Assembly (NCBI GenBank): GCA_964363145.1
Contig: CAYIHE010000001.1
Location: forward strand, 1 to 53,447
Direction: 5' to 3'
Source: an uncultured Gammaproteobacteria bacterium
GTDB taxonomy: Bacteria > Patescibacteriota > Patescibacteriia > Magasanikbacterales > GWA2-37-8
Length of the DNA stretch: 53,447 bases
Of the stretch, positions 35,259 through 52,007 are shown in pieces. The first letter of the stretch is position 1; each line of letters opens with the position of its first letter. The position numbers were made by a program, and so were the translations under genes. Below the pieces are notes generated by a model, which made no database searches, had not been told where the DNA came from, and saw nothing but the letters and a program-made list of their open reading frames with translations.

Positions 35259-36188
35259 ATGGCAATTACTAAAATAACCCCGCAACCGCAAGCGAAAAAA
35301 TTGGCAAAAAAAATTGGCTTAACCGCGGCTTTGTATTTGAAGCGCGAGGATCTGCATCCGCACGGATCGCACAAAGGCCGGTCTATTCCGCCGATGGTTG
35401 ACCATTATGTCAACGAAGGCGCTAGTAATTTTTGTATTTCATCATCGGGAAATGCAGCCTTGGCCGCTATTTATGCTATTCAAAAACATAAATCTTGCGC
35501 TTTACGCATCTTTGTCGGCAAACATATTCAACAGGATAAGTTGGAACGGTTACGACAAGTAATTTACAAAAATCAGAATATAACTATTGAGCAAGTGGAT
35601 GCTCCAAAACGAATGGCGTTTCAAATGGATAAAAATGGCTCTGTGCCGATTTTGCCGCCGCAAAATCGAGCATCCGCGATTTCGCGCCAAAGCGAAATCG
35701 GGACAAAAAATCTACGCCAGTCAACCGATGACACTGCGCTTGTTGGCTACCAAACGCTGGCCGATGAGCTGGCGGAAATAAAAAATCTTGCCGCTGTTTT
35801 TATTCCAACATCCAGCGGCACCACGGCGCAAGGTCTATATAATGGCTTTCAGAAACACAACATCAATCCGCAAATTCATATTATACAAACCCCTTTTTGC
35901 CACCCAATGGTTGCATCCCCGGCTCCAATCGAACCTTCGGTGGCAAGCGCGATTGTGGATAAGGTGGGCTATCGCAAAGAAGCGGTCCAAAAAGCCATAC
36001 GAGACAGTGGGGGCAAAGGATGGATAGCAACTGATAATGATATCGCGGAAACAAAATGCCAAATTAAAGAAACTGAAAATCTGGACATATCCGCCAACAG
36101 CGCCCTGTCGGTAGCCGGATTAAAACTTGCATTAAAAAATAATTGGCATTTTAGCGGGCCAGTGGTTTGTATTCTTACCGGACGTTAA
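35259..36188 (+). CDS. Fold-type II PLP-dependent enzyme (Thr synthase/Cys synthase superfamily) carrying a hairpin-module insert
   Basis: 309 aa. LKREDLHPHGSHKGR (PLP-lysine block) and SSSGNAALAAIYA. Insert at 35646-35706. Confidence 0.65.
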   Translation: MAITKITPQPQAKKLAKKIGLTAALYLKREDLHPHGSHKGRSIPPMVDHYVNEGASNFCISSSGNAALAAIYAIQKHKSCALRIFVGKHIQQDKLERLRQVIYKNQNITIEQVDAPKRMAFQMDKNGSVPILPPQNRASAISRQSEIGTKNLRQSTDDTALVGYQTLADELAEIKNLAAVFIPTSSGTTAQGLYNGFQKHNINPQIHIIQTPFCHPMVASPAPIEPSVASAIVDKVGYRKEAVQKAIRDSGGKGWIATDNDIAETKCQIKETENLDISANSALSVAGLKLALKNNWHFSGPVVCILTGR

Positions 36189-38228
36189 TTATTCTCCGTT
36201 CATCAAAATAATCTCGTCCACGCCGTCAAAATTAACATCGGCCGCGCCAACACTGGTTTGGCTGGTATTAAAACCGGCGGTAATTTTAAATTGAGACAAT
36301 AATTTTCCCGCCAGACTGTAAGTTTTTATCTGTTTGGTTTTACCAAAATCCAAAGCCACGATTATTTCCGGCGCGCCATCGCCGTTTATATCTCCGGAAG
36401 CCAGGCTAAAGCTTCCTTTTAATTTTTTAGTGTCTACGAAAAATCTCCGGCTGATTTTTGACAGTATGTTGTTATAAACAATAACCTCCGGAAATTTTCC
36501 GCCGCCGGCGCCGACAATAATTTTACTGTTGTTTCCCGCGCCGGCTATGGCCACCGCCAACCCTGTTTTATATGTTTTTCCCAACGGAAAAATATTTTCT
36601 TTTACTATTCCGCCGTGATAATTATAAATATTTATTTGCCCTCCTTTATTTTGAGAAGTGATTGTGGAGTTTTCCTGTGAGTCGGATAATCTTCCGACCG
36701 TTAAACGCACTTCACCGGTATAATTCCTGCCAAACGGCCAATCGCTAAGCCAAGTACCGCCACTACTATTAAATATTCCCAATTTTTGGCTGGTGGCGAT
36801 AATTTTTTCTTCGGTGCCACTGCCGTCCAGATCGCCGTGATATATTTTTGCTCCTCCGGGTACGCCATTTTCATAAACAAACAAACCGTTGCGGACGCGA
36901 TTTCCGTTTTTATCAAAAAATCTAATAAAATTGCCGTTGGCAAAGACAATGTTTTTGAGAGTCTGAAAAGTCCGCAACATTATTAGGCCGTCTTTGGCCG
37001 GTAAATTAACCTGACTAACTATGGAGCCGTCATTGACGGCGGAATCTTGCGTGCCGATTATTTTTTCATATTCGCCGCCTAGATCAATATCTTGCGGCAA
37101 AGAAGTGGCGTTGGTCAAAGCAATGCCATTTTCGTATTCCCTGCGCCAAACGTCTTCTTCGAATTTTTGCTTATTGTTTAAAGACAGAGCCGCCCCCAGC
37201 GGCTTGCCTAATTCAATGTTATATTCATCATACCACCAAGTTTGCGCGTGCGCCGTATCGCCAAAGTCAAAAGCATAATGCCCGTCCAACAGCAAAGCGC
37301 TGGCCAAACCAAAACGAAATTCCTTAAAATTATTTTGCCCGCCCGCTTCGCTCGGCTCAGAAGAGCGGGCGGGCGTTCCTAAATTCGCCGTATTAGCATT
37401 AATAATATTTAGGCGCGGTAAAGGCATGCCAAGCTGATTGCCGGCATAAACATTCATAGAATCTTTCCAGCTCAAAGGTGGAAAATTTTCCAGCATAATG
37501 CCGTTTAAGTCATCTTTATAAACATCGCTGGTGGCATTGCCAATCAAAACAAATTTGTTGCTGGTTAATTTTCTGGTCTCTTGGTAAATAGAGCGCGTGC
37601 CTTCGCGCCAATGCGCGTCTATATCGCTATCTTTTTGTCCATCTTTATTTAAATCTACAGTGTCGCCTGCCAGCCATTTTATGTCTTTCCATGCGTTGTC
37701 ATAAAATACTCCGTCCCAAACACCGGTGGACAAAATTTCTTGCGCCACGAATTTCGCGATGTATTTATTTAATTTGACGCCATTTATTTCCGGCGCGTTA
37801 TCGGCCACATTTAACATCCAAGTGCCGGGCCAAAAAGTGATTTTGTTATTTTGTGCGTCAGTTAAATACCATCGTTCGTCAATTCCAGCGGCCAATTTTT
37901 TTCGCATAACGCTAGTCCCAACAGCCGCGTCTTTTTTTATTTCTTGCGGAGTAATATAGGCGAGCAAAATTATATTGGGATTAAGCTGTTTGATTTTTTT
38001 CAGCGCGCTTAAACTGTTTATTTGCGTTTCCATGTCCAGAATCAACAAATCCCACTTGGCTAACTCAATAATTTTATTATCTAAGATTTCCCAATTCAAA
38101 TAATAGTTGGCGCGTTTTGGCGAAATGCGCGCGGCCGAAGATCGGCGCGGAAACAAAAGAACGGCATAAAAAACCGCGGTAAAAACCAGCGCGGCCAAAA
38201 TTATTTTTTTATTATTTTTTTTCCGCAT
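36189..38228 (-). CDS. Secreted glycoside-hydrolase-like (GHL15-type TIM barrel) protein with C-terminal FG-GAP repeats
   Basis: 679 aa. N-terminal signal/TM. ANYYLNWEI...WDLLILDME. C-terminal GDLDGSGTEEKII, GDINGDGAPEIIV and ADVNFDGVDEIIL. Confidence 0.6.
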   Translation of the reverse strand: MRKKNNKKIILAALVFTAVFYAVLLFPRRSSAARISPKRANYYLNWEILDNKIIELAKWDLLILDMETQINSLSALKKIKQLNPNIILLAYITPQEIKKDAAVGTSVMRKKLAAGIDERWYLTDAQNNKITFWPGTWMLNVADNAPEINGVKLNKYIAKFVAQEILSTGVWDGVFYDNAWKDIKWLAGDTVDLNKDGQKDSDIDAHWREGTRSIYQETRKLTSNKFVLIGNATSDVYKDDLNGIMLENFPPLSWKDSMNVYAGNQLGMPLPRLNIINANTANLGTPARSSEPSEAGGQNNFKEFRFGLASALLLDGHYAFDFGDTAHAQTWWYDEYNIELGKPLGAALSLNNKQKFEEDVWRREYENGIALTNATSLPQDIDLGGEYEKIIGTQDSAVNDGSIVSQVNLPAKDGLIMLRTFQTLKNIVFANGNFIRFFDKNGNRVRNGLFVYENGVPGGAKIYHGDLDGSGTEEKIIATSQKLGIFNSSGGTWLSDWPFGRNYTGEVRLTVGRLSDSQENSTITSQNKGGQINIYNYHGGIVKENIFPLGKTYKTGLAVAIAGAGNNSKIIVGAGGGKFPEVIVYNNILSKISRRFFVDTKKLKGSFSLASGDINGDGAPEIIVALDFGKTKQIKTYSLAGKLLSQFKITAGFNTSQTSVGAADVNFDGVDEIILMNGE

Positions 38229-38241
38229 AAACCGCCGCTAG

Positions 38242-39312
38242 CTATTTTAATTTAAACCCAAAAAACTTGTTTTTTATCACCCAAGCCAAAACTTTCAATG
38301 GATGTTTTTTTATGGCCGTACGAGCCGTGCAAATCATCCAAACCGGCACTTTACCAGCATCTACCTGCCGCCTAACTTCTTCGGCTTCCTCGCTACACCA
38401 AAATTTCTCTACGCCTGACATTTCTCTGATATTGCCCATGCGAATATTATGCACTACCGAAGGATAAATTACGCCGTTCGGATCTAAAAAGAAAAAGTCG
38501 CGCGCCGGCGCGTTGGATACCACCGGGTTGCGGCTGGTAATAAATGTATACATGCCAAAAGCAAAATAAGCGCGCGCCCAACGTTTTAGATTCCAGCCGC
38601 GCAATTCCGATTTGATGATATAAGTATATTGTTCCCGTAATAATTCACGCAGAGGACCGCTGACATGATTGCTGTCTTCTGTTGCCAAAGCCATTCCTTC
38701 GGTTAAAGACTCATCGCCCAAACCCTGAAAATCCGTGTTGGTTTTTCCGCCAAAATAAAACTCCGAACTCTGCGCGAAACTATGAGTGAATTGCGCGCCC
38801 AGCCGGCGAGACAAATCATAAACTTTTTTCAAGTGTTTAATATTTTTTTCGGTAATGGTAAAACCCAAACGCAAATTAGTCATTCCTAACTCTTTTAGCT
38901 GGCGCAGAGTTTCCATATCTTTGCTAAACCCTCCCGGAATGCCGCGCATCTCGTCGTGCATTTCGTCCATGCCGTCTATGGATATGGCTACGCCGATATC
39001 GGGTTTTATTTTTAAGATTTTTTTCATCTGCTTTACGACCAAATCTGTGAGAAAACCATTGGTGGAAATGACAATACGGGCTTTAGGACAGGCCTTGACT
39101 ACAACGGCGATTATCTCTGGCAAATCAGGACGCAAAAACGGCTCGCCTCCGGAGATATTTATATCCCGCAACGTAGATGGAAGTTTGGCAAATTCAGCCA
39201 CCGGCAACTCCGGAAAGCCCTTTATTTTCCAAATGTCGCACATGACACAGCGTGCGTTGCAATTGTAAGTAATAGCCAGCACGCAATCTGTTGGTAATCG
39301 GCAATTTTTCAT
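38242..39312 (-). CDS. Radical SAM protein
   Basis: 356 aa. AITYNCNARCVMCDIW (CX3CX2C) and ISGGEPFLRPD. Confidence 0.85.
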   Translation of the reverse strand: MKNCRLPTDCVLAITYNCNARCVMCDIWKIKGFPELPVAEFAKLPSTLRDINISGGEPFLRPDLPEIIAVVVKACPKARIVISTNGFLTDLVVKQMKKILKIKPDIGVAISIDGMDEMHDEMRGIPGGFSKDMETLRQLKELGMTNLRLGFTITEKNIKHLKKVYDLSRRLGAQFTHSFAQSSEFYFGGKTNTDFQGLGDESLTEGMALATEDSNHVSGPLRELLREQYTYIIKSELRGWNLKRWARAYFAFGMYTFITSRNPVVSNAPARDFFFLDPNGVIYPSVVHNIRMGNIREMSGVEKFWCSEEAEEVRRQVDAGKVPVWMICTARTAIKKHPLKVLAWVIKNKFFGFKLK

Positions 39313-39352: not shown

Positions 39353-40735
39353 ATGACAAGCTACCTTAAACGCTTTTCTTTCAGCGCCTTGCTAATAATT
39401 GGGACGGCTATTTTTACTTTTGTAAACGCGAATACAGCATTGGACGTCCTGGCGCTTTTGCTGATTGTTTTTATTATTTTACAAAAAGTTTTCGGCGAAT
39501 ATTTTGTTTTAATTCTTTTGGCCGCGCGTCCGACGCTGGATTTTTGGCGTGATTTTAGTCTTTTTTCTTTCCGGTCGTTTGAATTTAACATCAATTCGGC
39601 TTTATCCGTATTTTTACTAATTTGGTCAATATATTTTTTTGTAAAAAACCGCGCTTATTTCAAACAAATACCCGCCAAAATTCCCTGGCTGATATTTATG
39701 GGCTGGATTTCTCTTACCGCCATTTACAGCTATGATTTAATTTCTACCATCCGAGAAACGGCCAAAGCCGCCAACCTGTTTGCCTTATTCGGCATTTGCT
39801 TCATAATGTCGATAAAAAACAAAGAAATTTTTGGCAAAAAATTTTTAAAAAGCATGATTGCGGGCGCGATTTTGCCAATGCTTGTGGCCGCTTATCAATT
39901 TTTATCCCGTACCGGCATGGACATAGACGACATTGGTAACAGAATTTACGGCACTTTCGCCCACCCTAATATTTTAGCAACCTATGCCTTGCTTTTATTA
40001 ATAGTTGTAGTGAATGAGTTGTTTATCGCTAAAAATACAACGTTGAAATCCCCGCTTGGGCGGGGTAGGGGTGGGTTGGCCGTGATTTTATTTTTACTGG
40101 CCATAATCGCCTTTACCTACACTCGTATTGCCTGGATCGGCGCGGGAATGCTATTTGTAATTTTGGGCTTGGTTTATTACAGAAAAATTCTGGTGGTGAT
40201 TTTATCCGCCGCGGCTTTATTTTTCGCGCTATTTTATCCGTTAAATAATTATTTAATCCAAAATTATAATATTAATTTACAATCCTCCGGATTAATTTCC
40301 CGCTTAACTTCCCGCAATGAAGATTCTGATTCAATAAAATGGCGCGTAAATTTGGCAAATAAAGTTATGCCTCTTTTCCGCCAACGCTGGCTATTGGGTT
40401 ATGGCTACGGCTCGTTTCCCAAAGTTTGGGACGACAATAAAGACGTGGGGAATATCTGGGATACCACTTCCGAAGCGCATAATGATTATATAAAAGTTGC
40501 TTTTGAATCCGGCGTTGTCGGTTTGCTTTTATTTTTATTTATTTTTGCCAGTTTACTTTACCGACAAATAAATTTTGCCGTAAAAAACCATTGGACAAAC
40601 GTTGTGTTCATAGCCAGTATTGGAATTTATCTGATCTTGAGTCTTTCCGATAATATGTTGCATCACACGCCAATGATTTGGTGGCTGTGGGCGGTGTGGG
40701 GGGTGTGGAGCTACAAGTTGAAAGTTGAAAGTTGA
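39353..40735 (+). CDS. O-antigen ligase (Wzy_C) family membrane protein
   Basis: About 460 aa polytopic protein. SEAHNDYIKVAFESGVVGLLLF motif. ATG at 39353 preferred over the alternative start at 39335. Confidence 0.8.
   Translation: MTSYLKRFSFSALLIIGTAIFTFVNANTALDVLALLLIVFIILQKVFGEYFVLILLAARPTLDFWRDFSLFSFRSFEFNINSALSVFLLIWSIYFFVKNRAYFKQIPAKIPWLIFMGWISLTAIYSYDLISTIRETAKAANLFALFGICFIMSIKNKEIFGKKFLKSMIAGAILPMLVAAYQFLSRTGMDIDDIGNRIYGTFAHPNILATYALLLLIVVVNELFIAKNTTLKSPLGRGRGGLAVILFLLAIIAFTYTRIAWIGAGMLFVILGLVYYRKILVVILSAAALFFALFYPLNNYLIQNYNINLQSSGLISRLTSRNEDSDSIKWRVNLANKVMPLFRQRWLLGYGYGSFPKVWDDNKDVGNIWDTTSEAHNDYIKVAFESGVVGLLLFLFIFASLLYRQINFAVKNHWTNVVFIASIGIYLILSLSDNMLHHTPMIWWLWAVWGVWSYKLKVES
40049..40076. 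repeat. Hairpin module C inside the O-antigen ligase CDS
   Basis: Identical 28-mer to 6122-6149. Read as SPLGRGRGG. Confidence 0.85.
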
Positions 40736-40771
40736 AAGAATAAAGGCGGAGATCACTATCCGCCTCTCACT

Positions 40772-40822
40772 CCGCCGCACACCCATTCGGCTCTGCGGCA
40801 CCAGCGTGCTCGGCGGATTTTT
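40772..40822 (+). terminator. Intrinsic terminator after the O-antigen ligase gene
   Basis: CCGCCG...CGGCGG stem (40772-40816) followed by ATTTTT. Confidence 0.45.
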
Positions 40823-41158
40823 AGCCAGACGGATTTTCCTTATAGGAAAATCTCGTCGCTAAAAACAAAAAACCACCCAGAGAGAGTCACCTAACGAAGT
40901 AATAAATTACTTAGTCGGGTAATCGGGTGGTATTTTTGTTAGGCAGATAAATCTGCCCATTTCCGCTCACTTTATAAATGAACGCAAATGGACAGGTCTG
41001 CCAGCGAAAGCCCCAAAGGGGTCCTTCAATTCTAGTGATTATATTTTTGTACTTTCGTAGCTTTCGTATTTCGTACATAATCATTAAAATTGAAGGGGGG
41101 AAGAGAGTTGCTTAAACAACCGCTATCTCTACTCTCTTCCCCCACCAGGATACTACTC

Positions 41159-41953
41159 CTACTCCATGTTTCGCCCGTCGTACGTGCACTTGAACATGTC
41201 GTAGTAAACCGCGTGATAGAAGGTGCTTTCGACACCGCTCCACTCGATCTGACAGTCAATGGCGACACGATTGCCACCACTCGAGTAACATTCGACCGAG
41301 CAGCTAGAGGCTGGCGCCGCCTTCCACGGATCACCGGCCAGACCGTCGTACAGACTTTCCGGAGGGTAAGTCCCCAACGGAGGTGCTGGCTCGGCGATCT
41401 CGAATCCGCCCCAGAACACGCAGTTCACGGCTGACTCCGACGGCCAAATTTGCATGCCACCGCAATCGGCCAGGGTGTACACACACGTACCTCCCGAGCA
41501 CGAATCGTTCGTCCAGCCCCACCCGTCGTCGCAGTCCGCATCATCGTCGCAGGCCGGACAGACCGCGTCCGGCGTGGCCGCGTCCACAGGGGTGGGCGGC
41601 GGGGTCGCATCGGGCGGCGAGGCATCCGGTGGCGGCACAGTGGCCGCGTCGGGCGTGGGCGGAACGGCGGCGTCCGGGCTCGGAACCGAAGCATCCACAG
41701 TGGGTGGAACGGCGGCGTCCGGGGTCTCGGGAACCGTCGCGTCCGGCGTGGCCGGGGTGGCCGCGTCGCACTCGGGCGTGTTGCCCGCGTCCGGCGTCGT
41801 GACCGGGACGGTCGCGTCGGGCTCCATCGGCGACGGAGTCGCGTCGACCTCCTCGGTCGGCGGCTCGGCGTCGGGCAGATCCTGCAGCGGCAGGTCCTCC
41901 ATGAGGCAACCCGTCGCGCCAAGAACACACATCAAGAACAGACTCTTCATCAT
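41159..41953 (-). CDS. High-GC Pro/Thr/Asp/Ala-repeat, Cys-rich putative lipoprotein
   Basis: Start at MMKSLFLMCVLGATGC (signal peptide plus lipobox-like Cys). SD GAGGAG at 41962-41967. PDA(A/T)VPP repeats. CPACDDDADCDDGWGWTNDSCSGGTC block. Confidence 0.7.
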   Translation of the reverse strand: MMKSLFLMCVLGATGCLMEDLPLQDLPDAEPPTEEVDATPSPMEPDATVPVTTPDAGNTPECDAATPATPDATVPETPDAAVPPTVDASVPSPDAAVPPTPDAATVPPPDASPPDATPPPTPVDAATPDAVCPACDDDADCDDGWGWTNDSCSGGTCVYTLADCGGMQIWPSESAVNCVFWGGFEIAEPAPPLGTYPPESLYDGLAGDPWKAAPASSCSVECYSSGGNRVAIDCQIEWSGVESTFYHAVYYDMFKCTYDGRNME

Positions 41954-42046
41954 TGTCTCATCTCCTCTGGCCGCATCCGTGCGACCATATCTCGAACGTG
42001 ATCTCCACTCCAACCAACGGCATCATTGCCATGGTTGTAGTTTTTT

Positions 42047-42120
42047 TGTCATCCTGAACATAGTGAAGGATCTCTGTCCGTTTGATTGGACAAAATTTCT
42101 TCGCTTTGTTCAGAATGACA
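42047..42120. repeat. Family B element inside the high-GC island
   Basis: TGTCATCCTGAACATAGTGAAGGATCTCTGTCC...TTCGCTTTGTTCAGAATGACA. AT-rich like the host. Confidence 0.85.
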
Positions 42121-42174
42121 AGGTAAATTCATTTTAAGGTGCTTTTTCGATCTGTTTCATATTCCTATTTCTAC

Positions 42175-42212
42175 CAGACAGAGATCCCTCACCTGGATGG
42201 TTCGGGATGACA
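42175..42212. repeat. Half family-B element
   Basis: CAGACAGAGATCCCTCACCTGGATGGTTCGGGATGACA. Confidence 0.65.
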
Positions 42213-42302
42213 ATCGTGAGTGGAATAAGGATATGAATGAATCGCCCTGCACCAGCCGACTCCTTTTGGGAATCAACTGGCGCAGGGAACTGCTGTGGGG
42301 AC

Positions 42303-42998
42303 TTACCTCCCCCACAAGTAGGACAGGTTGAAGCCGCTTACGGCGGCGTACTCTTGGGGAGTGTCCCCGTGAGCGCGCGAACCGCGCACACCGTAGGAAA
42401 CATACCCCTCAAGCAACATCCCGGCCTTTTCTACCGCTACCCGGAAAGACGGGCCGTAGAACGTCTCGTTCCAGGTCTCGCGTGGATGCGAGTCCTGGTT
42501 GATGGTTCCGAGCAGGTCGAAACCGACCCCGAAAGCCACGATCTTCGTATCCGGCGTTGCGTAGCACATGACGGCTACGGAGCTGGACACGGAGATGGTG
42601 TTGAAGCGGCCATCGCCCAGTCCGGCCCGGGCGCGAATGCGCCACGGCGAGGACTTGAAGCCGATCTGACCGACGAGGTCGGCTGTGATCGCCAGACCGC
42701 CACTTGGGTCTCCAAGCAGGTAGGCGTAGCCGAAGCCGATGCCTCCACGAAGGGAGGTGTCGGACTTCTCCTCCACCACGACGAGCCGGGTGGGGGCCGC
42801 CAGCGCCACCTTCTTCTTGAAGAATGGGACCGGGATGAGAACCTCGATGGTGAGGGTCTCACCGGCCTTGGGGGCCGAGAAGACCATTGGCTTGTCGGCG
42901 TCTTCGGCCGACACGGTGACGGTCTTGTCCTCGGCGCGAGCGTTCGTCACGCCTACGGCACAGAACATCAGAAACACCATCTGCTTCGCATTCTTCAT
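42303..42998 (-). CDS. High-GC secreted protein with an outer-membrane beta-barrel-like pattern
   Basis: 231 aa. Signal peptide MKNAKQMVFLMFCAVGVTNARA. About 8 alternating-hydrophobic strands (GIGFGYAYLLG, KIVAFGVGFDLLG, YAAVSGFNLSYLW). SD GAGGAG at 43007-43012. Confidence 0.65.
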   Translation of the reverse strand: MKNAKQMVFLMFCAVGVTNARAEDKTVTVSAEDADKPMVFSAPKAGETLTIEVLIPVPFFKKKVALAAPTRLVVVEEKSDTSLRGGIGFGYAYLLGDPSGGLAITADLVGQIGFKSSPWRIRARAGLGDGRFNTISVSSSVAVMCYATPDTKIVAFGVGFDLLGTINQDSHPRETWNETFYGPSFRVAVEKAGMLLEGYVSYGVRGSRAHGDTPQEYAAVSGFNLSYLWGR

Positions 42999-43226
42999 CT
43001 TCTCGTCTCCTCTGGTCCCGCTCCTGCGGGGCCGTTTGTGAATTGTAAAAAACGATCTTCTTCATCCCCCCACCACTATTAGTGAGGAGACCAAGTGATC
43101 GTGCGAGTGGTTTAGACTCGCACGGGGTAGGCATGATCCCGATTCGCCGGTTGGCAAATGGGACACATGTGTTGGTCGGTGAGGGACCTGCCATGCACCG
43201 GTCGCCCTAGGCGACCTGGTGCGGGG

Positions 43227-43784
43227 CTACTCCTCGCCGAAATACACGGGCTCCAGCCTCGGCACGACTACGATCGTGCCGAGCTGGGTTGAGACAGGCG
43301 CGGCCCTGATGGCCGCAACCTCCTGCTCGACGGCCTCGACCCTTTGCCGAACGTTCTGCGCGTACTTGCGCAGATCGCGGCGGTTGGCCTTCTTGGCGTC
43401 GTCCAGATCGACCAAGTCGGCCTTGGTCTTGAGATCGCTCAGGTCGGCCTTGCTGGCCTGCAGCTTCTTGATCTCGCTGAGGAGGCCTGCGGCGGACTGG
43501 CGGTCCGTCACTGCGTCGGCCTCCAAGACCCCAGTCCTTTTCTCGACCTGGAGTATGCGAACCTGCAGCATGGTGATGTCCGCGCCGGTCTGGGCCGTCT
43601 GGGCCTTGACCGTGGCCGCGCTGTTGTCGCGCGACACCTTGCCTTGGCAAGTGACAGCCAGGAGAACCAGTGTCGCGGCCAAGATCATGGCCATGAAAAC
43701 CGCAAATGCTACCGGCTTGCGCTGTGGCCGCTTCGTCACCGCCGTCGACTCGTCCGGATTTCCACCGTTCTGCTGTCCGCTCAT
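43227..43784 (-). CDS. High-GC single-pass membrane protein with a coiled-coil ectodomain
   Basis: 185 aa. TM segment VAFAVFMAMILAATLVLLAV, then heptad-like LQVRILQVEKR...LLSEIKKLQASKADLSDLK. SD GAGGAG at 43792-43797. Confidence 0.65.
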   Translation of the reverse strand: MSGQQNGGNPDESTAVTKRPQRKPVAFAVFMAMILAATLVLLAVTCQGKVSRDNSAATVKAQTAQTGADITMLQVRILQVEKRTGVLEADAVTDRQSAAGLLSEIKKLQASKADLSDLKTKADLVDLDDAKKANRRDLRKYAQNVRQRVEAVEQEVAAIRAAPVSTQLGTIVVVPRLEPVYFGEE

Positions 43785-43846
43785 GTTCTTTCTCCTCTCG
43801 GTCAGTTCACCCTCGTCTTGGCCACACGGCCTACGAAGGGTTTGAT

Positions 43847-43938
43847 TGTCATTCTGAACCTAATAAAGAATTTCTGCTTTGTAAAACAGACAGAGATTCT
43901 TCACTACGTTCAGAATGACAATTGGTGACAGAATGACA
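43847..43938. repeat. Family B element with duplicated right terminus at the island border
   Basis: TGTCATTCTGAACC...GACAGAGATTCTTCACTACGTTCAGAATGACA (to 43920), plus a second ACAGAATGACA (43928-43938). Confidence 0.85.
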
Positions 43939-44070
43939 ATCGGATAATTGGTGGACTTATGTTTTAAAACAGCAAAACCTCCGTATGAGAGAGGTTGTAA
44001 AAGGTTTGACGACCCGCGCAATATTCTCTCGATATTGTTGGGCCGGTCTTTAACTTTTAAAAGACGTATT

Positions 44071-44099
44071 ACTATATCATACATCCCAAAATTTGTCAA
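44071..44099 (-). promoter_or_regulatory. Consensus sigma70-like promoter facing the high-GC island
   Basis: On the minus strand: TTGACA (44094-44099), 17-nt spacer, TATAGT (44071-44076). Confidence 0.45.
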
Positions 44100-44120
44100 T
44101 AGGCGCGCCCCGCAAAAACC

Positions 44121-44148
44121 AAAAATTAGCCGATATTTGGCTAATTTT
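44121..44148 (-). terminator. Intrinsic terminator of the giant gene
   Basis: On the minus strand: AAAATTAGCC-AAATATC-GGCTAATTTTT, then GGTTTTT. Lies 34 nt after the stop. Confidence 0.6.
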
Positions 44149-44181
44149 AGAGAAAAAATAAGTTATCTCAAAACAAGTATT

Positions 44182-47100
44182 TTAACGTCCGGTTATATCT
44201 TTTAGCTTATTTAAGTCCTCCCACTGCTCATCGGACAATTTAATAGCTTCTTGGTGTGTAAATTTTCTAGTTACACCATATTGGTCCGTCATAAGCAATT
44301 CGCCTTTTTCGTTAGTGTTAAAAATCCAATCTTTATCATGAATAAAAATATCTTCACCTTCCACCGGATCCCAAATTCTAGCCGCATGTCCACCGTTGGT
44401 CAAAACTGGTTCTCGGAGCACTTCCCTACCTTCAATCATAACTAAATCAATTACTTTGTCTTCTTTTTTAAACATAACGTCGCGAAAATCAGACATCCAA
44501 TCTGGTTTATATGTGTTAAATTTCTCTTCCACGGCTAAAACTTTTTCTATTATTCTTAAATTTTCACTACCTGTAATCTCGTGGCTAGAAAGCTTCTCAA
44601 ATATAAGATCCGGCTGATTATTATACAAGAAATCAATTTTCTTTTGCAAAATTATTTCCGAATCACCCCGGAAAACAAATGAGTTGTTAAATTTTTCTAT
44701 GGTCGCGTCTACCATTTTATCGTAAGTATTTATAAATTCTCTAGGACTGGAACCACGCTCACGCAAAAATTCATTGGCAGAAACACGAACATCCTCGGCT
44801 GGCGCCGCCGCTGTTTCTATTCCCGCGGAACCTTTTGCGCCAACTGACACAGCCGATGTTTTGGTTTCCACCGCCGAAGTTTTGGCAGATATAGTATTCA
44901 AAGTTTTTTCCACACGCGTTGGAGCCGGCGCGTTGATTTTTGCTTCCGGCGGATAATCGGTCATTAGTTCCGCTCCCGATTTGGCAGACACTTCTTTGGC
45001 TGCTTCCAGCGGACTAGTTCTTTCCAAAGTGGTATGTTCGGACAAAACAAATTTGGGTTCTGTTGCAACAGGCTCGGCGCCGGGCAATACGGCCGCTGTT
45101 TCGTGATGAATACCCGTGCTCATTTGATCTACCGTTACAGACCCGCTGCCGCTTAAAATTGGCTGGTTATTTTCCAAACCAAAGTAGTTGACTTCTCCAC
45201 GAACATGATTATCAATCCCGGGTTTGGCATCAGTAGCATCAACTTCCAATCCGGCGTTGGCCAAATCCGTGCTTTCCCTGCCTTGCATAGCTCTAAACAA
45301 CCCTCTTACCATTTTGTTATCTTCTTCGTCATACTGCCGGGCAAATTTCAAGTACTGGGCAGGCGTATCTTTATCAATATACTTGGACAAATAACTTAAA
45401 TGCCGCTCGCTAAAATCCTGGCTCTGCAAATATTTGGCGGCTGATTCCGGCCCGCCTTTTTTTAATAATTCTTCAAAAATCACCTGCCGGCGTTCTCCTC
45501 CGCCTTCGTCTAAAGTATCTATGTGACCCTTAATAAAACTATAATGTGAACGAACGCCGCCTCCAACTTGGCTGGAGTTTAAAATATTCTGAACTGAATC
45601 CGGATTATTTAATTCCGGATATTCTTGTGCCAAATTACTAAGCGCGGCCGCGGCTTCCGGACTTAATTTATGTTCCAGAGCAAATTGATCCACGGAAAAA
45701 CTAGACGCCACTTCTACCGGAACAACCGAGGAGCTAACTTCACCAGACGCCATTTGTTTCGGTTCCAGTCCCTCTTCACCGGCCGGATGCGAGGATTGTT
45801 TATGATCTCCGCGCAAATACTCTTGTAATTTGGCGGTACCATAACCCAGCCCGGCGCCAGCCACCGCGCCAACTACCCCATACCCAACCGCGCGCCACCA
45901 GCCGGGTTTGCGCAAAATTCTTTGTTTGATATTTTGCTGTTCAGTGGTTAAGCTTTCTAAATCTTTATTTAAACCGGTTAAAAGATTTTCCACGGCACTA
46001 TGGCGCAAATTTTCCGGAGCCGGCACTTCATCTAATTGCGGAGCTTCGTTTAAATAAATATTTATCTGCAAAGATTCCACTCGACGCAAAACATTTTGAG
46101 CGCGTAATTTTAAATTTATATCGCCTTCCAACATTCCCAAAGTTAAAGGCACACGCAAATCTTTGGCGCTTTCTGCCAATTCCGCCATATTTTCCGGCTT
46201 GAATTCGCCCGCATTTTCTGTTTTTTGCCTTTGCGCCCAAGTTTCTACCAATTTTTCCGCTTTAGCGATATTGTTTTTAAATTCTTTTTCAAATTGCATT
46301 TCTCTGGCTTTGCGATCTTTGAGGTGGCCATATTTTACTCCCAAGTAACCGCCGGCCGCAGCGCCCAACAAGGCCCGCAGTTCCGGCGCCGCGGCCAAAG
46401 CCGCGCCAATGCTGGCGCCAGCTGCCACTGAACCTAAAACCGAAGCGATTTTTCTGGCACTGCTTTCTTTTTTAACCGGATCTTTATCAGCGTCTTTAAC
46501 AAACTTGCTGAATTCTTGGCCATAAATAGTCAGGTTTTGCAATTTTTTAACAATTTTCGGATCGCGATTAATAAGCTCCTGGATTAAAGCTTCCAAATCT
46601 TTGTCTTCGTATAATTTTTTGATTAAAACTTCAACTCTTTCGGTTTGACTGCGTTTTATTTCTATTGCCGATTCTTCGCCAGAGGATATTTTTACTTCGG
46701 CAAATTCTTTGTCAATTTGGCCGGCGACTTCTTCCAAAGCAACTTCGGCGTTGGCTTTTACTTTGGTTATATCTTCATTTTTTACTGCCGAAGCGCTGGC
46801 GTCGCGCAAACTCTGGCTTAACATGGCGGAAAGCTGTTCCAGCATTTGCGGACCTTCTTCGCCGGTAAATTGAGCCAGCAAACTATCGCGCAAGTTTAAA
46901 GATTTTTCTTCTTTTATTTTTTCTTTGCCAACGGAAATTTCCTGATTGGCGTTTTCTTTTCTTTTATTAAACCAGCCCCTAATGCCATCCACTTTGTTTT
47001 TTAGTCCACGCAACAATCCGGTGGCGCCGCCTACAGCGGCGCCACGAACCGCGCTACTGGCGCCGCCAGTGGACAGCAACAATCCCACACTGCCGCCCAA

Positions 47101-49017
47101 AACCGCGAATGGCAAAATGTTTATTGCCGCCAATTTTAAATGCGCGGCCGGATTTTCTTTAAATTTATCCCACAAATTTATGTTTTTATTCAGCCAATTG
47201 CGCGACATCTGTTCCACCCATTTTTTTATCATCTCAAACGAATGTTTGTGCAAATTTTCCACCCATGCTTTTTTAAATTCATCCGGCGTGTAATCAAAAC
47301 CGGCCAGAGTTTTTTTCAGAGCGGCTTCGTCCAAATCTTTTCTGGAAAAAATATCTTTTAACAAAATTCCGGCAACATCAATATTACCCAAAATAATTTC
47401 ATTAACCACTTCCTGCAATTTTTTCTCGCCAATGATTTCCAGCAGATCGTTTTCCTTGATATCCACAACGCGCTTTTTACGTTCCGAAGATTTTGGAGCT
47501 ACGGGCGGAGCCGTTGGTTCCGGTGTTTCTTGTGTTTCCGGCGGTTCCGGTTGTTCCGGTGGTTGCGGCGCTTCGGCGCGCGGCGGCGGCGGATTTTCAA
47601 GCCACGCTTTCAAGGCATCTTCATCAGCTTTTCTTTTGGTGGCAATGGCTTCTTCTTTTTCCTTTTCCACAGCTTTTTTTATATTGTCTTGGATATCTTT
47701 ACTTACGCCATCAATTTCCGCCTGAATAAACTTTGCTTCCTCATCAAACTCCTTGCCTTTATTATGCCAGATTTCTGGGATCATTCGCACTTTTAGGCCT
47801 TCCATAGTATCGTAAAATTCTTTGACAATGTCGGCATACTTGCCTTCTGATTTTTCCCTATATAATTCTAACAGCGCGTCTAATGATGCGTGTAATGATT
47901 TTAATGTTAAAACTCTTTCCGCCGCATCTCTGTTTTGTGTTTCTAAATCATCGGCAATCGGCTCCGGCGGTTTTGGCGATTTTGGCGATTTTGGTTCGGC
48001 ATGCGGCTTTGCTTTTTTTGGCAAAATACCGCCATGTTCAAAAATTTCTTTTATGTCCGGTTCTAAATTTGCGACTAACTCACTAAAATTCTTATCAAAA
48101 TTATCCATGCTGGCATTAAAAATTTCTAGGTCATCATGCATTTTATCTGCGGTATTCAAATCATCCAGCAAGGATGTCATTTGTTCGTCATATTTGCTGT
48201 ACAAATTTCTTTTTCTTTGCTCCTTTTTATCTGCTTCTTTAATAATATTCGTCAGCAATAAAAAATTTTGATCGTGTTTATCAAATAAACGTTTGCGCTG
48301 TTTTCGTTGTTCTTTTTTTTCTTTTTCAGCATCAACGGACTGGAGCTCTGCCGGTTTTACCGGAGATTTGGCGGCGGATTCATCTTGCTTATCTTCGTCA
48401 ATCATGCGATTGAGTATGAGATGTAAATCTCCCAAGCGATTTTTAAAATCATCACGCGCTTCATCCATTTTTTTATAGTCTTTATTTTTCAGCAAACTTT
48501 TCATTTTATCTAAAATTTTGCCGAGTTCAGCCAGCTCGCTTTCGTCAACATCCATTTCATGTTTATCCGCACGCGCCTTAAATTCTTCTAATTCTTTTTC
48601 GGCGTCAAAGTAATGATTCTCAAATTTTTTAAATTCAATATCTTCCGTCGCGGCTATAACTTCCAGCTCTTTAACATCTTTTTGTTTTTGTTCTTCTGCC
48701 GCTTCCGGCACTTCGGTTTTAAGTTCTTCTATATCATATTTTATTTTCCCCATTTCTTTTGTTACTTTAACTAACTTACCGGCAAATACTGACGGATCGT
48801 TTATAAATTTTTTAAGACTTCCATTTTCGTTATTAATCTCAAAAATAAAAGCTTCGATTGTTTTTATCAAATTATCAACTTTTTTTCCTTTTTTATCCAA
48901 ACCGACTAAACCCACTTGTAAACTATTTAATTCATCCAGTTTTTTTTGTATGGATCCTTCTCTCTCTGCCTTGGTGGTAATGGAAAAAGGAGATTTATCC
49001 GGATTTTTTTTGGCCAT
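44182..49017 (-). CDS. Giant 1611-aa coiled-coil / Gly-Ala-zipper membrane-associated protein, function unknown
   Basis: Single uninterrupted ORF with host-like composition. K/E-rich helical N-terminal ~560 aa. Two Pro-rich linkers. Three G/A-rich hydrophobic hairpins. No catalytic motif recognised. Confidence 0.85.
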   Translation of the reverse strand: MAKKNPDKSPFSITTKAEREGSIQKKLDELNSLQVGLVGLDKKGKKVDNLIKTIEAFIFEINNENGSLKKFINDPSVFAGKLVKVTKEMGKIKYDIEELKTEVPEAAEEQKQKDVKELEVIAATEDIEFKKFENHYFDAEKELEEFKARADKHEMDVDESELAELGKILDKMKSLLKNKDYKKMDEARDDFKNRLGDLHLILNRMIDEDKQDESAAKSPVKPAELQSVDAEKEKKEQRKQRKRLFDKHDQNFLLLTNIIKEADKKEQRKRNLYSKYDEQMTSLLDDLNTADKMHDDLEIFNASMDNFDKNFSELVANLEPDIKEIFEHGGILPKKAKPHAEPKSPKSPKPPEPIADDLETQNRDAAERVLTLKSLHASLDALLELYREKSEGKYADIVKEFYDTMEGLKVRMIPEIWHNKGKEFDEEAKFIQAEIDGVSKDIQDNIKKAVEKEKEEAIATKRKADEDALKAWLENPPPPRAEAPQPPEQPEPPETQETPEPTAPPVAPKSSERKKRVVDIKENDLLEIIGEKKLQEVVNEIILGNIDVAGILLKDIFSRKDLDEAALKKTLAGFDYTPDEFKKAWVENLHKHSFEMIKKWVEQMSRNWLNKNINLWDKFKENPAAHLKLAAINILPFAVLGGSVGLLLSTGGASSAVRGAAVGGATGLLRGLKNKVDGIRGWFNKRKENANQEISVGKEKIKEEKSLNLRDSLLAQFTGEEGPQMLEQLSAMLSQSLRDASASAVKNEDITKVKANAEVALEEVAGQIDKEFAEVKISSGEESAIEIKRSQTERVEVLIKKLYEDKDLEALIQELINRDPKIVKKLQNLTIYGQEFSKFVKDADKDPVKKESSARKIASVLGSVAAGASIGAALAAAPELRALLGAAAGGYLGVKYGHLKDRKAREMQFEKEFKNNIAKAEKLVETWAQRQKTENAGEFKPENMAELAESAKDLRVPLTLGMLEGDINLKLRAQNVLRRVESLQINIYLNEAPQLDEVPAPENLRHSAVENLLTGLNKDLESLTTEQQNIKQRILRKPGWWRAVGYGVVGAVAGAGLGYGTAKLQEYLRGDHKQSSHPAGEEGLEPKQMASGEVSSSVVPVEVASSFSVDQFALEHKLSPEAAAALSNLAQEYPELNNPDSVQNILNSSQVGGGVRSHYSFIKGHIDTLDEGGGERRQVIFEELLKKGGPESAAKYLQSQDFSERHLSYLSKYIDKDTPAQYLKFARQYDEEDNKMVRGLFRAMQGRESTDLANAGLEVDATDAKPGIDNHVRGEVNYFGLENNQPILSGSGSVTVDQMSTGIHHETAAVLPGAEPVATEPKFVLSEHTTLERTSPLEAAKEVSAKSGAELMTDYPPEAKINAPAPTRVEKTLNTISAKTSAVETKTSAVSVGAKGSAGIETAAAPAEDVRVSANEFLRERGSSPREFINTYDKMVDATIEKFNNSFVFRGDSEIILQKKIDFLYNNQPDLIFEKLSSHEITGSENLRIIEKVLAVEEKFNTYKPDWMSDFRDVMFKKEDKVIDLVMIEGREVLREPVLTNGGHAARIWDPVEGEDIFIHDKDWIFNTNEKGELLMTDQYGVTRKFTHQEAIKLSDEQWEDLNKLKDITGR

Positions 49018-49022
49018 ATAAA

Positions 49023-49352
49023 TTATTTAGAAGCCAGCAATTGCTTGGTTTTTTCGGTAAATTCAACTAAAACTTCTTTTACTTTTTCTTCAAAATTCGG
49101 CGCGGAATCATGCCAAAAGTTTTTCCATTCTTCTGGAGAAGTATTTTCGTTGTTTGACAATTTTACAAACTTGTCGGTTTGTTTATCGTTTAACTGGGGC
49201 AGAAGTTTTAACCCCAAGCGCATTTCCACTTGCGCCATTATTTGCGGCACATAAATTTTTTTCTGCTCCTCGGCCAAGCTGATTTTGTTTTCCTCCAATA
49301 AAGCCAGGACGTATTCAATTAGGAAATCAAATTGGTGTTTAGTTTGCGACAT
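49023..49352 (-). CDS. Hypothetical 109-aa protein
   Basis: ORF 5 nt upstream of the giant gene, on the same strand. No motif. Confidence 0.55.
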   Translation of the reverse strand: MSQTKHQFDFLIEYVLALLEENKISLAEEQKKIYVPQIMAQVEMRLGLKLLPQLNDKQTDKFVKLSNNENTSPEEWKNFWHDSAPNFEEKVKEVLVEFTEKTKQLLASK

Positions 49353-49372
49353 AAGATTAAATTATGAATAAT

Positions 49373-49987
49373 TTAAATTGAAATTCCAAAAATGTGTTTT
49401 TTGCGCCGCGCCACCCAGAGAGAGGAAATAAAAAATCCGACCAGCAGTCCAACTGCGAAATTTACCGGTAAATTAGGGCGCGCCTGCCATTTGGCCACCA
49501 ATGGCGTGCTGACTATTTTTATGGCCACATCCCCTCCCAGATATTCCCAGCCCTGCGCGGACACGGTTTGCGTTACGGCGCCGGACAAACTAACGGCTTC
49601 TTCTTTACTCTCCGCGTAAACTTTTATGCTCATTAGACCGGTGCCGTAAATCATAGCGGCCTGCACGTCTTTAGCCCATTTTTTTCTTTGCTGGCGATCG
49701 GGGAGTTTTTTCCACGCGTCTTTGTTAAAAGAAACAACTGTGGAATTTAAAGTTTTGTTAAAAAAATCCGTAGTTTTCATGATTTGCGCCAAATTAACGC
49801 CAACTCGCTCCGCGGAACGCGCTTGTGTATATGGATCAACGCCGGTTTTATCGCGGGAAATTATTAACACCTGACTAGTAGCGCTATATTGTTTAGGAAA
49901 AAACCAGCTAATGCCGACGGATAAAAAAGCTAAAACCAAAGCCCATGCCACTATTAATTTTATGTGTTTGAATAAAAGACGAAACAT
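49373..49987 (-). CDS. Wzz-like polysaccharide chain-length determinant family protein
   Basis: 204 aa. N-terminal TM plus PKQYSATSQVLI. C-terminal Pro-rich stretch (PLVAKWQARPNLP) before a second TM. Confidence 0.55.
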   Translation of the reverse strand: MFRLLFKHIKLIVAWALVLAFLSVGISWFFPKQYSATSQVLIISRDKTGVDPYTQARSAERVGVNLAQIMKTTDFFNKTLNSTVVSFNKDAWKKLPDRQQRKKWAKDVQAAMIYGTGLMSIKVYAESKEEAVSLSGAVTQTVSAQGWEYLGGDVAIKIVSTPLVAKWQARPNLPVNFAVGLLVGFFISSLWVARRKKHIFGISI

Positions 49988-49993
49988 ATATTT

Positions 49994-51037: not shown

Positions 51038-51074
51038 AACCGAAATTTTTAATTTCTAATGACTAATTTCTAAT

Positions 51075-51207: not shown

Positions 51208-51209
51208 AA

Positions 51210-52001: not shown

Positions 52002-52007
52002 ATTAAC

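Follow-up and report, generated by a model that had tools for sequence, protein, structure and literature searches.

A GC-rich three-gene island encoding predicted envelope proteins, shared at one chromosomal site by diverged groundwater Patescibacteria

The window analysed here comprises positions 1 to 53,447 of contig CAYIHE010000001.1 (assembly GCA_964363145.1), from an uncultured bacterium assigned to the Patescibacteria, or candidate phyla radiation (CPR). It contains a GC-rich island with three minus-strand genes, named g1, g2 and g3 and hereafter called the trio, which encode predicted membrane or exported proteins. The three open reading frames (ORFs) had been proposed by an earlier sequence-only reading of the window and were confirmed at the same coordinates. 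The genes and their domains are as follows, AF2 standing for AlphaFold2 and pLDDT for its predicted local distance difference test.

43227-43784, minus strand: g1, 185-aa type II membrane protein (ORF with transmembrane and helix prediction)
42303-42998, minus strand: g2, 231-aa secreted protein, signal peptide cleaved between ARA and ED
42306-42758, minus strand: residues 81-231 of g2, eight-stranded antiparallel beta-barrel (AF2 model)
41159-41953, minus strand: g3, 264-aa predicted lipoprotein (alignment A2, AF2)
41162-41557, minus strand: residues 133-264 of g3, C-terminal beta-rich, Cys-rich domain (eight invariant Cys; AF2 pLDDT 73-97)

The island stands out from the remainder of the window by every measure of composition used. 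Its GC content is 61.0% at 41100-43830 as against 41.7% at 1-41029 and 42.0% at 43941-53447. In 1-kb bins the values are 57-62% at 41001-44000 and 34-49% in all remaining bins, and in 100-nt bins the GC content climbs from ~41100 and falls by ~43830, with maxima of 0.79. The richest 2.7-kb segment reaches 0.613, the 99th percentile beyond the island being 0.457. Two hand counts given by the sequence-only reading (47/60 and 35/60) were exact on recomputation. GC content at third codon positions (GC3) is 0.84 for g1, 0.81 for g2 and 0.78 for g3, compared with 0.38-0.48 in ten adjacent host genes and 0.23-0.52 in all 42 other ORFs of the window. Furthermore, two-fold codon preference is reversed between island and host, with 96% against 13% AAG for Lys, 86% against 18% GAG for Glu and 90% against 12% TTC for Phe. 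The dinucleotide distance delta* (x1000), which is independent of GC content, is 269 for the island, while host 2.7-kb segments have a mean of 50 and a maximum of 111. The composition claimed to be foreign to the host is thus borne out by GC3, codon usage and dinucleotide signature. The enrichment is patchy; indeed, the g2-g3 spacer (41954-42302) has 46% GC and contains host-type palindromic repeats. Overlapping antisense genes were considered as a source of the high GC content and rejected, given that not every orthologue keeps the alternative frames of g2 and g3 open and that a 281-aa antisense ORF at 42237-43082 is open in this lineage only.

Both outer junctions and the internal low-GC spacer are covered by at least five independent assemblies at 99.8-100% identity with few single-nucleotide polymorphisms (megablast). 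The supporting contigs were retrieved by exact-protein look-ups and originate from separate Hainich groundwater samples and filter fractions (ERZ1292629, -635, -638, -640) and from the metagenome-assembled genome (MAG) GCA_964366525.1. The worry that the segment might be a chimera or contamination is therefore refuted, since independent assemblies bridge every junction.

The g1 protein consists of a short cytoplasmic N-terminus, one transmembrane helix and a helical/coiled-coil ectodomain with a conserved C-terminal GTIxVxxRxxPVY strand motif. The single-pass protein with coiled-coil ectodomain described earlier is hence confirmed in both its membrane helix and its helical ectodomain, and g1 would be a membrane-anchored coiled-coil stalk. 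Only weak family matches were obtained for it (DUF4795, E=0.017; Rz-like spanin, E=0.05).

The g2 protein has a 55-aa N-terminal region of low confidence with a conserved PGxGE..TV.VEVP motif. AF2 models residues 81-231 at pLDDT 80-94 as eight strands of 12-16 residues each. When this model was compared with the PDB by Foldseek, the top hits were OmpX, NspA, Ail, the transmembrane domain of OmpA (OmpA-TM) and the N-terminal domain of OprF (OprF-N), with E-values of 5e-5 to 2e-3 and probabilities of 0.99-1.00; OmpW and OprH are further structural neighbours, so that the best PDB neighbours are all eight-stranded outer-membrane proteins (OMPs). The strand faces alternate, one being 75% hydrophobic and 25% aromatic and the other 25% Gly and 21% charged, as obtained from a dyad analysis of the sequence and not from coordinates. 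In the window g2 ends in SYLWGR. Among 25 family members (alignment A3) five end in YLF or VLF, and these are distant members, while the others add G[RKN] or a similar extension after the aromatic residue. With the eight-stranded OMP barrels (OmpX/Ail/Lom, NspA/Opa, the OmpA N-domain, OprF-N, OmpW and OprH) g2 accordingly has in common the predicted antiparallel fold of eight long strands, a Sec signal peptide, a hydrophobic/aromatic face opposite a Gly/charged one and, in the distant members that end in YLF, an aromatic end of the C-terminal strand. It differs from them in having no detectable similarity to any Pfam, NCBIfam or PDB sequence, in the 55-aa N-terminal extension with its own conserved motif, in the G[RKN] that most members append after the aromatic residue, and in coming from a phylum regarded as lacking both an outer membrane and the barrel assembly machine (BAM). 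Indeed, no Pfam match was obtained for g2 at E<=0.1, and the 25 members gave none at E<=1 to the OMP families OmpA_membrane (PF01389), Ail_Lom (PF06316), OMP_b-brl (PF13505) and OmpW (PF03922); nothing was found in NCBIfam, and a profile search against PDB sequences returned nothing relevant. The signal peptide and small outer-membrane barrel proposed by the sequence-only reading are therefore in agreement with the OmpX/OmpA-like eight-stranded barrel predicted by AF2 and Foldseek. Its remark that such a barrel would be out of place is supported as well, the genome of a close relative being labelled Patescibacteria, a phylum treated as monoderm.

In g3 the lipobox of the window sequence reads MMKSLFLMCVLGATG followed by C, this Cys16 is shared by all 12 aligned sequences, with [ASTVGI][GA] at positions -2/-1. 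AF2 predicts a disordered linker of ~115 aa with PDA(A/T)xP repeats ahead of the C-terminal domain. No fold match in the PDB or BFVD was better than E=0.28, and no hit was found in Pfam at E<=0.1 or in NCBIfam/TIGRFAM at E<=1, the Myxococcus Cys-rich repeat included. The lipobox, PDA repeats and Cys-rich block noticed earlier are thus real (invariant Cys16 and eight invariant Cys), and the affinity to myxobacteria or other high-GC diderms that had been attached to them found no support, as there is neither a family-model match nor a homologue outside the CPR locus. No Lgt or LspA was seen among the window proteins scanned (53 kb), a search in which no dedicated test was made.

The other genes of the window encode ATP synthase, methionyl-tRNA synthetase, Fe-S assembly proteins, a copper ATPase, transketolase, MurB, Mur ligases and MraY, those beside the island being envelope and housekeeping genes. 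The host has a small cellular genome that provides for peptidoglycan synthesis. No outer-membrane biogenesis gene was found among the proteins scanned in the 53-kb window, and in the literature CPR bacteria are placed in a monoderm clade in which outer-membrane systems have been lost (10.1101/2021.05.31.446380).

All three protein families are tiny, with ~20 representatives in 1.8 billion proteins. A word-indexed search of 5.8 billion protein clusters returned 7 homologues of g2, 12 of g3 and, for g1, one besides the window's own sequence, and the g2 family has 20 members among 1.84 billion representatives searched exhaustively by profile. One locus, in a Patescibacteria MAG, was obtained by scanning GTDB species representatives, and at least 5 loci by scanning metagenomes with the g3 alignment A2. 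Searches of the trio proteins against Pfam, NCBIfam/TIGRFAM, PHROGs and PDB sequences gave nothing significant, and tblastn matched neither g2 to phages (50,697 records) nor g3 to plasmids. Hence none of the three matches a described family, as had been suspected.

The related loci, designated by L numbers, derive from two sequencing projects, one sampling the Hainich wells H43 and H51 and the other contributing two runs. In all contexts examined the trio occupies the same site: a Wzz-like gene, a small protein, a giant protein, g1, g2, g3 and then the Wzy_C ligase gene on the opposite strand, beyond which lie radical-SAM/GHL15, PALP, a Mur ligase and MraY. This order is common to the window, L009/L010, L012, L015, L020 and L022, which represent at least 6 diverged Patescibacteria lineages. 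Every homologue with examined genomic context lies in this locus and the three genes always occur together there; no empty site was met among the related loci recovered, each carrying the trio at the equal position. No homologue outside this CPR locus was detected in the 5.8 billion clusters, the 1.84 billion representatives or the GTDB and metagenome scans.

The atypical composition is shared by all related loci, in which the trio has 58-76% GC inside flanks of ~40%. Across lineages GC3 is 0.66-0.89 for the trio and 0.32-0.49 for flanking or host genes, and the reversed codon choice repeats in six of six lineages. The dinucleotide distance among lineages (delta* x1000) is 86 for trio against trio and 74 for flank against flank, compared with 315 for trio against flank. 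Protein identity between loci is 69-94% for the flanks, mostly 27-66% for the trio and 43% for the giant protein. The number of synonymous substitutions per synonymous site (dS) was compared for the same pairs of loci.

Window and L010: trio 1.0-1.1, flank 0.8-2.1
Window and L015: trio 1.0-1.8, flank 1.3-1.8
L015 and L020: trio 0.8-1.3, flank 1.0

The pattern of relatedness is equal in trio and flanks, with the window, L010 and L012 in one cluster and L015 and L020 in another. As the dS of the trio tracks that of the flanks for the same pairs, the trio has co-diverged with the chromosome. Moreover, given its synteny in all relatives and a dS equal to that of the flanks, any transfer would be older than the clade. 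The recent acquisition envisaged by the sequence-only reading is contradicted by the same two facts; of the acquired surface system that it proposed, the three undescribed exported or membrane proteins stand while their acquisition by this genome does not. The ratio of nonsynonymous to synonymous divergence (dN/dS) is 0.55-0.95 for g1, 0.30-0.55 for g2 and 0.26-0.42 for g3, compared with 0.05-0.22 for the flanks. The trio are real genes, which evolve fast under purifying selection.

Ancient transfers are generally expected to fade from detection by amelioration, according to the passage of PMC12455944 that cites Lawrence and Ochman 1997. By our own calculation and simulation, amelioration toward the host GC3 of ~0.43 would leave a GC3 of ~0.63-0.69 at the depth of the window-L015 split even from an ancestor with 100% GC3, compared with the 0.66-0.89 observed in the trio. 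Synonymous changes between strong (S; G or C) and weak (W; A or T) bases were polarised by three-taxon parsimony, a strict five-taxon version having left too few sites.

Trio: S->W 91, W->S 43
Flanks: S->W 216, W->S 280

The W->S rate per site in the trio is three times that of the host. Because parsimony polarisation is biased, the raw "implied equilibrium" is untrustworthy and we relied on a joint fit and on tree depth. When tip GC3, pairwise identity, both apparent rates and the count ratio of 2.1 were fitted together, a stationary GC3 of ~0.78 gave a near-exact match, while the amelioration model leads to an S->W/W->S count ratio of 3-6 and to higher S->W rates, against the observed 2.1. 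With moderate confidence we conclude that the composition of the trio is no relic and is being either maintained or renewed, a stability over time that the sequence-only reading could not have seen.

The trio is also set apart by its Shine-Dalgarno (SD) sites and by the hairpins in front of them in the 5' untranslated regions (UTRs).

43791-43798, minus strand: SD of g1, AGAGGAGA, 6 nt before the ATG; anti-SD duplex -9.1 kcal/mol
43810-43840, minus strand: bipartite stem-loop in the 5' UTR of g1, CCCTTCGT-A-GGCC-GTGT-GGCC-AAG-ACGAGGG (RNAalifold)
43006-43013, minus strand: SD of g2, AGAGGAGA, 7 nt before the ATG
43014-43033, minus strand: 5' hairpin of g2, GGCCCCGC-AGGA-GCGGGACC, abutting the SD (per-sequence folding)
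41961-41968, minus strand: SD of g3, AGAGGAGA, 7 nt before the ATG
41969-41986, minus strand: 5' hairpin of g3, GGTCGCA-CGGA-TGCGGCC, abutting the SD

The octamer AGAGGAGA occurs exactly 3 times in the 53 kb, each time ahead of a trio ATG; its presence before all three genes had been noticed earlier, with a spacing of 7-8 nt that is in fact 6-7 nt. An anti-SD duplex of -6 kcal/mol or stronger is formed by 17 of the 18 trio genes of 6 loci (values -7.9 to -12), compared with ~3 of 42 host genes in the window and 2 of 31 in the other loci. Host leaders are A/T-rich and for most of these 42 + 31 genes (window; flanks of L009, L010, L015, L020 and L022) the anti-SD energy is ~0. From these leaders the host genome appears essentially devoid of SD sites, and the trio sites are themselves anomalous in it, which was not visible to the sequence-only reading. 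A GC-rich hairpin upstream of the SD is found in 18/18 trio 5' UTRs. The g1 stem-loop lies ~12 nt upstream of the SD and has 10 predicted pairs, 3 of them with compensatory changes, over 6 loci (RNAalifold), single folds having -16 to -21 kcal/mol. The stems of the g2 and g3 hairpins vary among orthologues with pairing retained (CCCGC/GCGGG, GGTCGC/GCGACC, GGGCC/GGCCC, ACCGC/GCGGT). No RNAalifold consensus came from the 18 pooled 5' UTRs or from the 12 g2/g3 UTRs, as MAFFT misregisters hairpins of variable length, and the hairpin evidence consists of per-sequence folds and the RNAalifold result for g1.

The signals for transcription are of the host type, and the following elements were located between the giant gene and the end of the island.

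44071-44099, minus strand: sigma-70 promoter TTGACA-17-TATAGT with extended -10 TG (scan score 11/12)
43966-44064, minus strand: AT-rich structured leader, conserved
~44037-44019, inside an outer stem at ~44048-44011, minus strand: leader stem-loop with invariant (C/U)GAGAGA loop
43996-43966, minus strand: terminator-like hairpin and T-run of the leader, conserved in 5/6 loci
43042-43216, minus strand: g1-g2 intercistronic module (read from sequence)
43216-43200 and 43123-43101, minus strand: hairpins past the g1 stop codon
~43095-43045, minus strand: second hairpin with GATCGTTTTTT, g1-g2 spacer
43047-43042, minus strand: -10-like TACAAT, g1-g2 spacer
42245-42287, minus strand: GC-rich hairpin right after the g2 stop codon, CCCTGCGCCAG...CTGGTGCAGGG (read from sequence)
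41085-41143, minus strand: terminator hairpin closing the island, GGGGGAAGAGAGT-N22-ACTCTCTTCCCCC with T-rich tail (inverted repeat I7)

The promoter lies between the terminator of the giant gene and g1, and its hexamers are invariant in 6/6 aligned loci (alignment A8). For the leader, which is mostly missing from L020, RNAalifold gives 17 pairs, 4 with compensatory changes. Its GAGAGA loop could pair with a complementary CUCUCUC on the 5' side of the terminator-like hairpin that follows; the leader may accordingly be an attenuator with alternative antiterminator pairing, or else a small RNA of its own. Rfam has no hit over the whole window at gathering thresholds, and at E<=1 over 40700-44200 only chance hits of miRNA models to the host palindrome. 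In the 12 spacers of 6 loci the same order of elements recurs, namely a post-stop hairpin, a second hairpin with GATCG(T/A)n, a -10-like box (T(T/A)ACAAT or TAAAAT), a 5' hairpin and the SD. Such a module could serve as terminator and promoter, and each trio gene may thus be a separate transcription unit. The post-stop hairpin of g2 has homologues in L010 and L012, and the closing terminator, with 13/13 complementary positions, is conserved in the window, L010, L012, L015 and L026. The trio appears to be wired into host-type transcription and yet has its own style of translation initiation.

Taken as a whole, these results are best explained by a fixed, vertically inherited three-gene surface module of ancient foreign origin whose signature has been maintained, and we hold this explanation to be probable. 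Vertical inheritance of the island, in what is a small clade of groundwater Patescibacteria, would go back further than the split of the sampled lineages. One ancient transfer from a high-GC diderm donor would be the most economical origin, because composition, codon choice and translation signals are of a high-GC type and the kinds of protein (Sec signal, lipobox, barrel) of a diderm type. The locus is presumably driven by the host-type sigma-70 promoter and the long structured leader, which are conserved and would be active, and each gene seems to be self-contained, with terminator-like hairpins, a -10-like box, a 5' GC hairpin, a strong SD and a GC-rich coding sequence to which corresponding functions may be assigned. 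The signature being identical in all lineages despite a synonymous turnover of ~1 or more, a gene-specific force would hold it in place. The guess we favour is that selection acts for mRNAs that are unusually stable and SD-dependent, in a cell whose ordinary mRNAs are AU-rich and SD-less. A 5' hairpin, a strong SD near the 5' end and a GC-rich body are known mRNA-stabilising features in monoderm bacteria. As for the proteins, g3 would be lipid-anchored, with its long proline-rich spacer presenting the Cys-rich head, and g2 would form a small barrel that a lipid membrane could accommodate. As an outer membrane is probably lacking in the producer, the most plausible place of action of this barrel would be the cell surface, with the option that it inserts as an anchor in the outer membrane of a diderm partner. 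We infer that the trio serves as a module for the surface or for contact with a host. Its protein families have not been described and have very few members, while the barrel fold and acquired envelope islands in general are already known.

Several points weigh against this explanation. The donor was not found in the 5.8 billion clusters and 1.84 billion representatives, the foreign origin resting on composition and protein type, and mobility scars are absent, a tRNA, an integrase and a bordering direct repeat having been looked for: the window has no tRNA, no integrase among the proteins scanned and no bordering direct repeats besides a dispersed host palindrome. The g2 barrel is predicted from an alignment of 8 sequences, its target-normalised template modelling (TM) scores to OMPs are moderate (0.43-0.58) and g2 has no sequence match to any OMP family. 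The monoderm status of the host is taken from its phylum, 53 kb of the genome having been examined. The dS values near 1-2 are rough, and in simulation parsimony inflates W->S changes in GC-rich diverged sequences, so that the stationarity test is confounded. The g3 genes of L010 and L012 are 84% identical in amino acids with a dS of 0.42, compared with 50% for g2 and a dS of 1.07 for Wzy_C; from the difference between 0.42 and 1.07, trio genes seem to have been exchanged occasionally between lineages (L010 9336-10148 and L012 3182-3985). Finally, both the function and the idea of mRNA stability are conjecture.

Other explanations of the foreign signature were considered. A misjoined high-GC piece of another organism in a low-GC contig would agree with the low coverage (3-6x per contig names) and the abrupt change of composition; its probability is negligible, as different samples, filter fractions and MAG GCA_964366525.1 span the junctions and the spacer, diverged orthologous loci of another project are arranged identically and host-type repeats lie within the island. 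Hardly more credible is a recent horizontal acquisition by this genome, too new to have ameliorated. The strongly atypical composition, codon usage and dinucleotide signature and the SD sites unlike those of host genes would be expected from it, but the trio occupies one site in at least 6 lineages whose flanks are merely 70-94% identical in protein, trio dS equals flank dS, there are no mobility genes or insertion scars and the promoter is conserved and host-type. It is conceivable, although unlikely, that the signature is renewed, either by a recombination hot spot overwritten from an unsampled GC-rich pool or by GC-biased gene conversion among co-occurring lineages. The closeness of the L010 and L012 g3 genes noted above speaks for renewal, as do the fast protein evolution, expected of surface proteins under diversifying pressure, and the arrangement of the genes as separate modules between similar spacers, which are possible recombination anchors. 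However, trio dS tracks flank dS in most pairs, the GC-rich reservoir was not found in 15 billion proteins that include metagenomes of the same aquifer, and the adjacent giant gene evolves equally fast and yet has host composition. Gene conversion would moreover leave the SD sites and hairpins unexplained, and the island spacers are not GC-rich. Reported effects of GC-biased gene conversion in bacteria amount to a few percent of GC3 and not to 40 points.

With regard to the proteins, a more specific form of the explanation is that a monoderm, ultra-small episymbiont keeps a diderm-style toolkit for the envelope of another cell, with the trio at its own compositional equilibrium inside an AT-rich, SD-less genome, which we put forward only tentatively. 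Here a BAM-independent OmpX-like barrel on the g1 stalk, beside the long-tethered g3 head, would serve as an anchor or conduit by inserting into a Gram-negative host's outer membrane. GC3 of ~0.8, the trio's own dinucleotide signature and SD-dependent translation would have been kept over more than 1 substitution per synonymous site, as a gene-specific "second genome signature" that the amelioration paradigm does not predict. About as doubtful is the contrary view that g2 is a soluble or wall-associated beta-barrel and not a membrane barrel, the trio then being fast-evolving surface antigens or phage-receptor decoys. Indeed, a membrane barrel without the BAM machine has no obvious assembly route, and the missing OMP-family match and moderate TM-scores point the same way; on the other hand, all significant structural neighbours are eight-stranded OMPs, with no lipocalin or avidin-type barrel among them, the strands are as long as 12-16 residues and the non-hydrophobic face is rich in Gly and charge, as in the lumen of OmpA and OmpX. 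That the clade is not typically monoderm and has an outer-membrane-like layer, g2, g3 and g1 being its ordinary OMP, lipoprotein and inner-membrane tether, we consider improbable. A diderm envelope classically has these three types of protein, the terminal Phe of distant g2 relatives resembles that of a BAM substrate and the surroundings are envelope-related (Wzz-like, Wzy_C, GHL15 glycosidase-like, Mur ligases, MraY), but CPR bacteria are treated as a monoderm clade without outer-membrane markers, the window has no outer-membrane biogenesis genes, its g2 ends in YLWGR and not in an aromatic residue, and the foreign composition and SD anomaly would be left unexplained. A spanin-like fusion or lysis device from a diderm prophage, with g1 as i-spanin and g3 as o-spanin-like lipoprotein, is very improbable. 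It is brought to mind by a parallel architecture and by the second-best PHROG hit of g1, phrog_7686 "Rz-like spanin" (E=0.052, not significant), but no holin, endolysin or other phage gene lies nearby, nothing matched in the 50,697 phage records, spanins include no barrel and g3 has 264 aa with a folded Cys-rich domain. O-spanins have 40-60 aa.

The fixed and anciently acquired module that we favour can be compared with several known systems. Like the islands of the Lawrence and Ochman amelioration model, it is a sharply bounded segment of atypical GC, codon and dinucleotide composition that encodes accessory surface proteins, but it has no mobility genes, tRNA, flanking direct repeats or detectable donor, it is found at the same site in every relative, and its signature has not drifted toward that of the host though dS is at least 1. 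Among 5' mRNA stabilisers, ompA-type 5'-terminal stem-loops and "STAB-SD" elements, for example that of the B. thuringiensis cryIIIA leader, are well known. With these the trio shares a GC-rich hairpin upstream of a very strong SD, and strong hairpins past each stop codon; unlike them, it couples the device to a GC-rich coding body in a genome otherwise SD-less. Phage spanins Rz/Rz1 resemble the trio in combining a type II coiled-coil membrane protein with a proline-rich lipoprotein encoded close by, whereas the trio has no significant match or lysis cassette, g3 is much larger with a folded domain and a barrel gene lies between. SD-poor bacteria retain few SD-bearing genes, for example rpsU in Flavobacteriia. 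As there, the trio is a handful of genes with a strong SD where almost no gene has one, which implies a special translational regime, but it concerns another phylum and other genes, which are compositionally foreign besides.

If our explanation is correct, a predicted outer-membrane-type barrel, a lipoprotein and a stalk occur together in Patescibacteria, which are thought to be single-membraned and attached to other cells, and they would be a concrete candidate for how some Patescibacteria hold or breach a Gram-negative host. The island would furthermore be a natural counter-example to amelioration, a 2.7-kb segment staying foreign beside host DNA across a dS of at least 1. Either nucleotide-level selection on few genes would then be far stronger than assumed, or a reservoir that has not been seen would be refreshing them. 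The rare SD-led genes of an SD-less genome could also help in studying the partitioning of translation initiation in reduced bacteria. Persistence, SD anomaly and OMP-like barrel in a presumed monoderm are together unexpected for CPR biology and genome evolution.

Public gene calls are wrong in this GC-rich DNA, which makes these families easily overlooked. In L003 and L006 the 281-aa plus-strand antisense ORF (42237-43082) is annotated instead of g2, and in L009 a 317-aa out-of-frame ORF (8687-9640) takes the place of g3. The latter was considered as a divergent allele and rejected, as it is a misread frame whose DNA is identical to that of L010, where g3 is called properly. Frame -2 antisense to g1 (43227-43784) is stop-free over 92-100% of the gene in 5/6 lineages, the g2 and g3 equivalents not being so; this open frame is probably a by-product of GC-rich coiled-coil codons.

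The gene directly upstream of the trio (44182-49017, minus strand) encodes the giant protein, of 1611 aa in the window and of host composition, with coiled-coil and glycine-zipper or transmembrane-like segments and no family match. Its length is 873-1611 aa and its identity 20-43% between lineages, with the trio always next to it, and it may be functionally linked to the trio.

The host-type repeat is an imperfect palindrome of ~76 nt, copies of which lie in the island.

43846-43921, no strand assigned: 76-nt palindromic repeat, TTGTCATTCTGAAC...GTTCAGAATGACAA, in the g1 leader, with a partial extra arm at 43926-43941
42046-42213, no strand assigned: palindromic repeat in the g2-g3 spacer, full copy 42046-42121 and half copy 42170-42213

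The same TTGTCATTCTGAAC...GTTCAGAATGACAA palindrome is also intergenic at 1105-1192, 16634-16788 and 32765-32844, and its arms have 22 matches where 4.7 are expected. The copy in the g1 leader is missing from this position in L010, L020 and L022. In four orthologous spacers (window g2-g3, L012 g1-g2 and g2-g3, L022 g1-g2) the palindrome directly follows an ACAAT(A)AAA -10-like box. It is a host element similar to repetitive extragenic palindromes (REP) or miniature inverted-repeat transposable elements (MITE), and its presence inside the island indicates a long residence of the latter. Integron cassettes, which came into question because imperfect palindromes bound each gene, were rejected as an explanation, the palindrome being dispersed over the window in unrelated intergenic regions and missing from several orthologous spacers, with no integrase found among the window proteins scanned.

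Between the island terminator and Wzy_C a non-coding block (40742-40990, minus strand) is more conserved than the adjacent genes. It is near-invariant in the window, L010, L012, L015 and L026, absent from L020 and without a hit in Rfam. Two terminator-like hairpins are present, one with CCACCC...GGGTGG and a T-run ending at ~40880 and the other at 40767-40742, and its CU-rich motif ACUCUCUC, which is partly complementary to the trio SD, repeats in the leader terminator and in the g3 terminator. From these features the block is a candidate for one or more novel small RNAs.

Further along, the radical-SAM/SPASM gene (38242-39312) and the GHL15 glycosidase-like gene (36189-38228) are separate in the window and form a single 1013-aa ORF in L009/L010 (L009 11515-14556). 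The PALP gene (window 35259-36188, L009 14557-15414) has a dS of 0.23, compared with ~1.2 for the adjacent Mur ligase, a sign of recent exchange.

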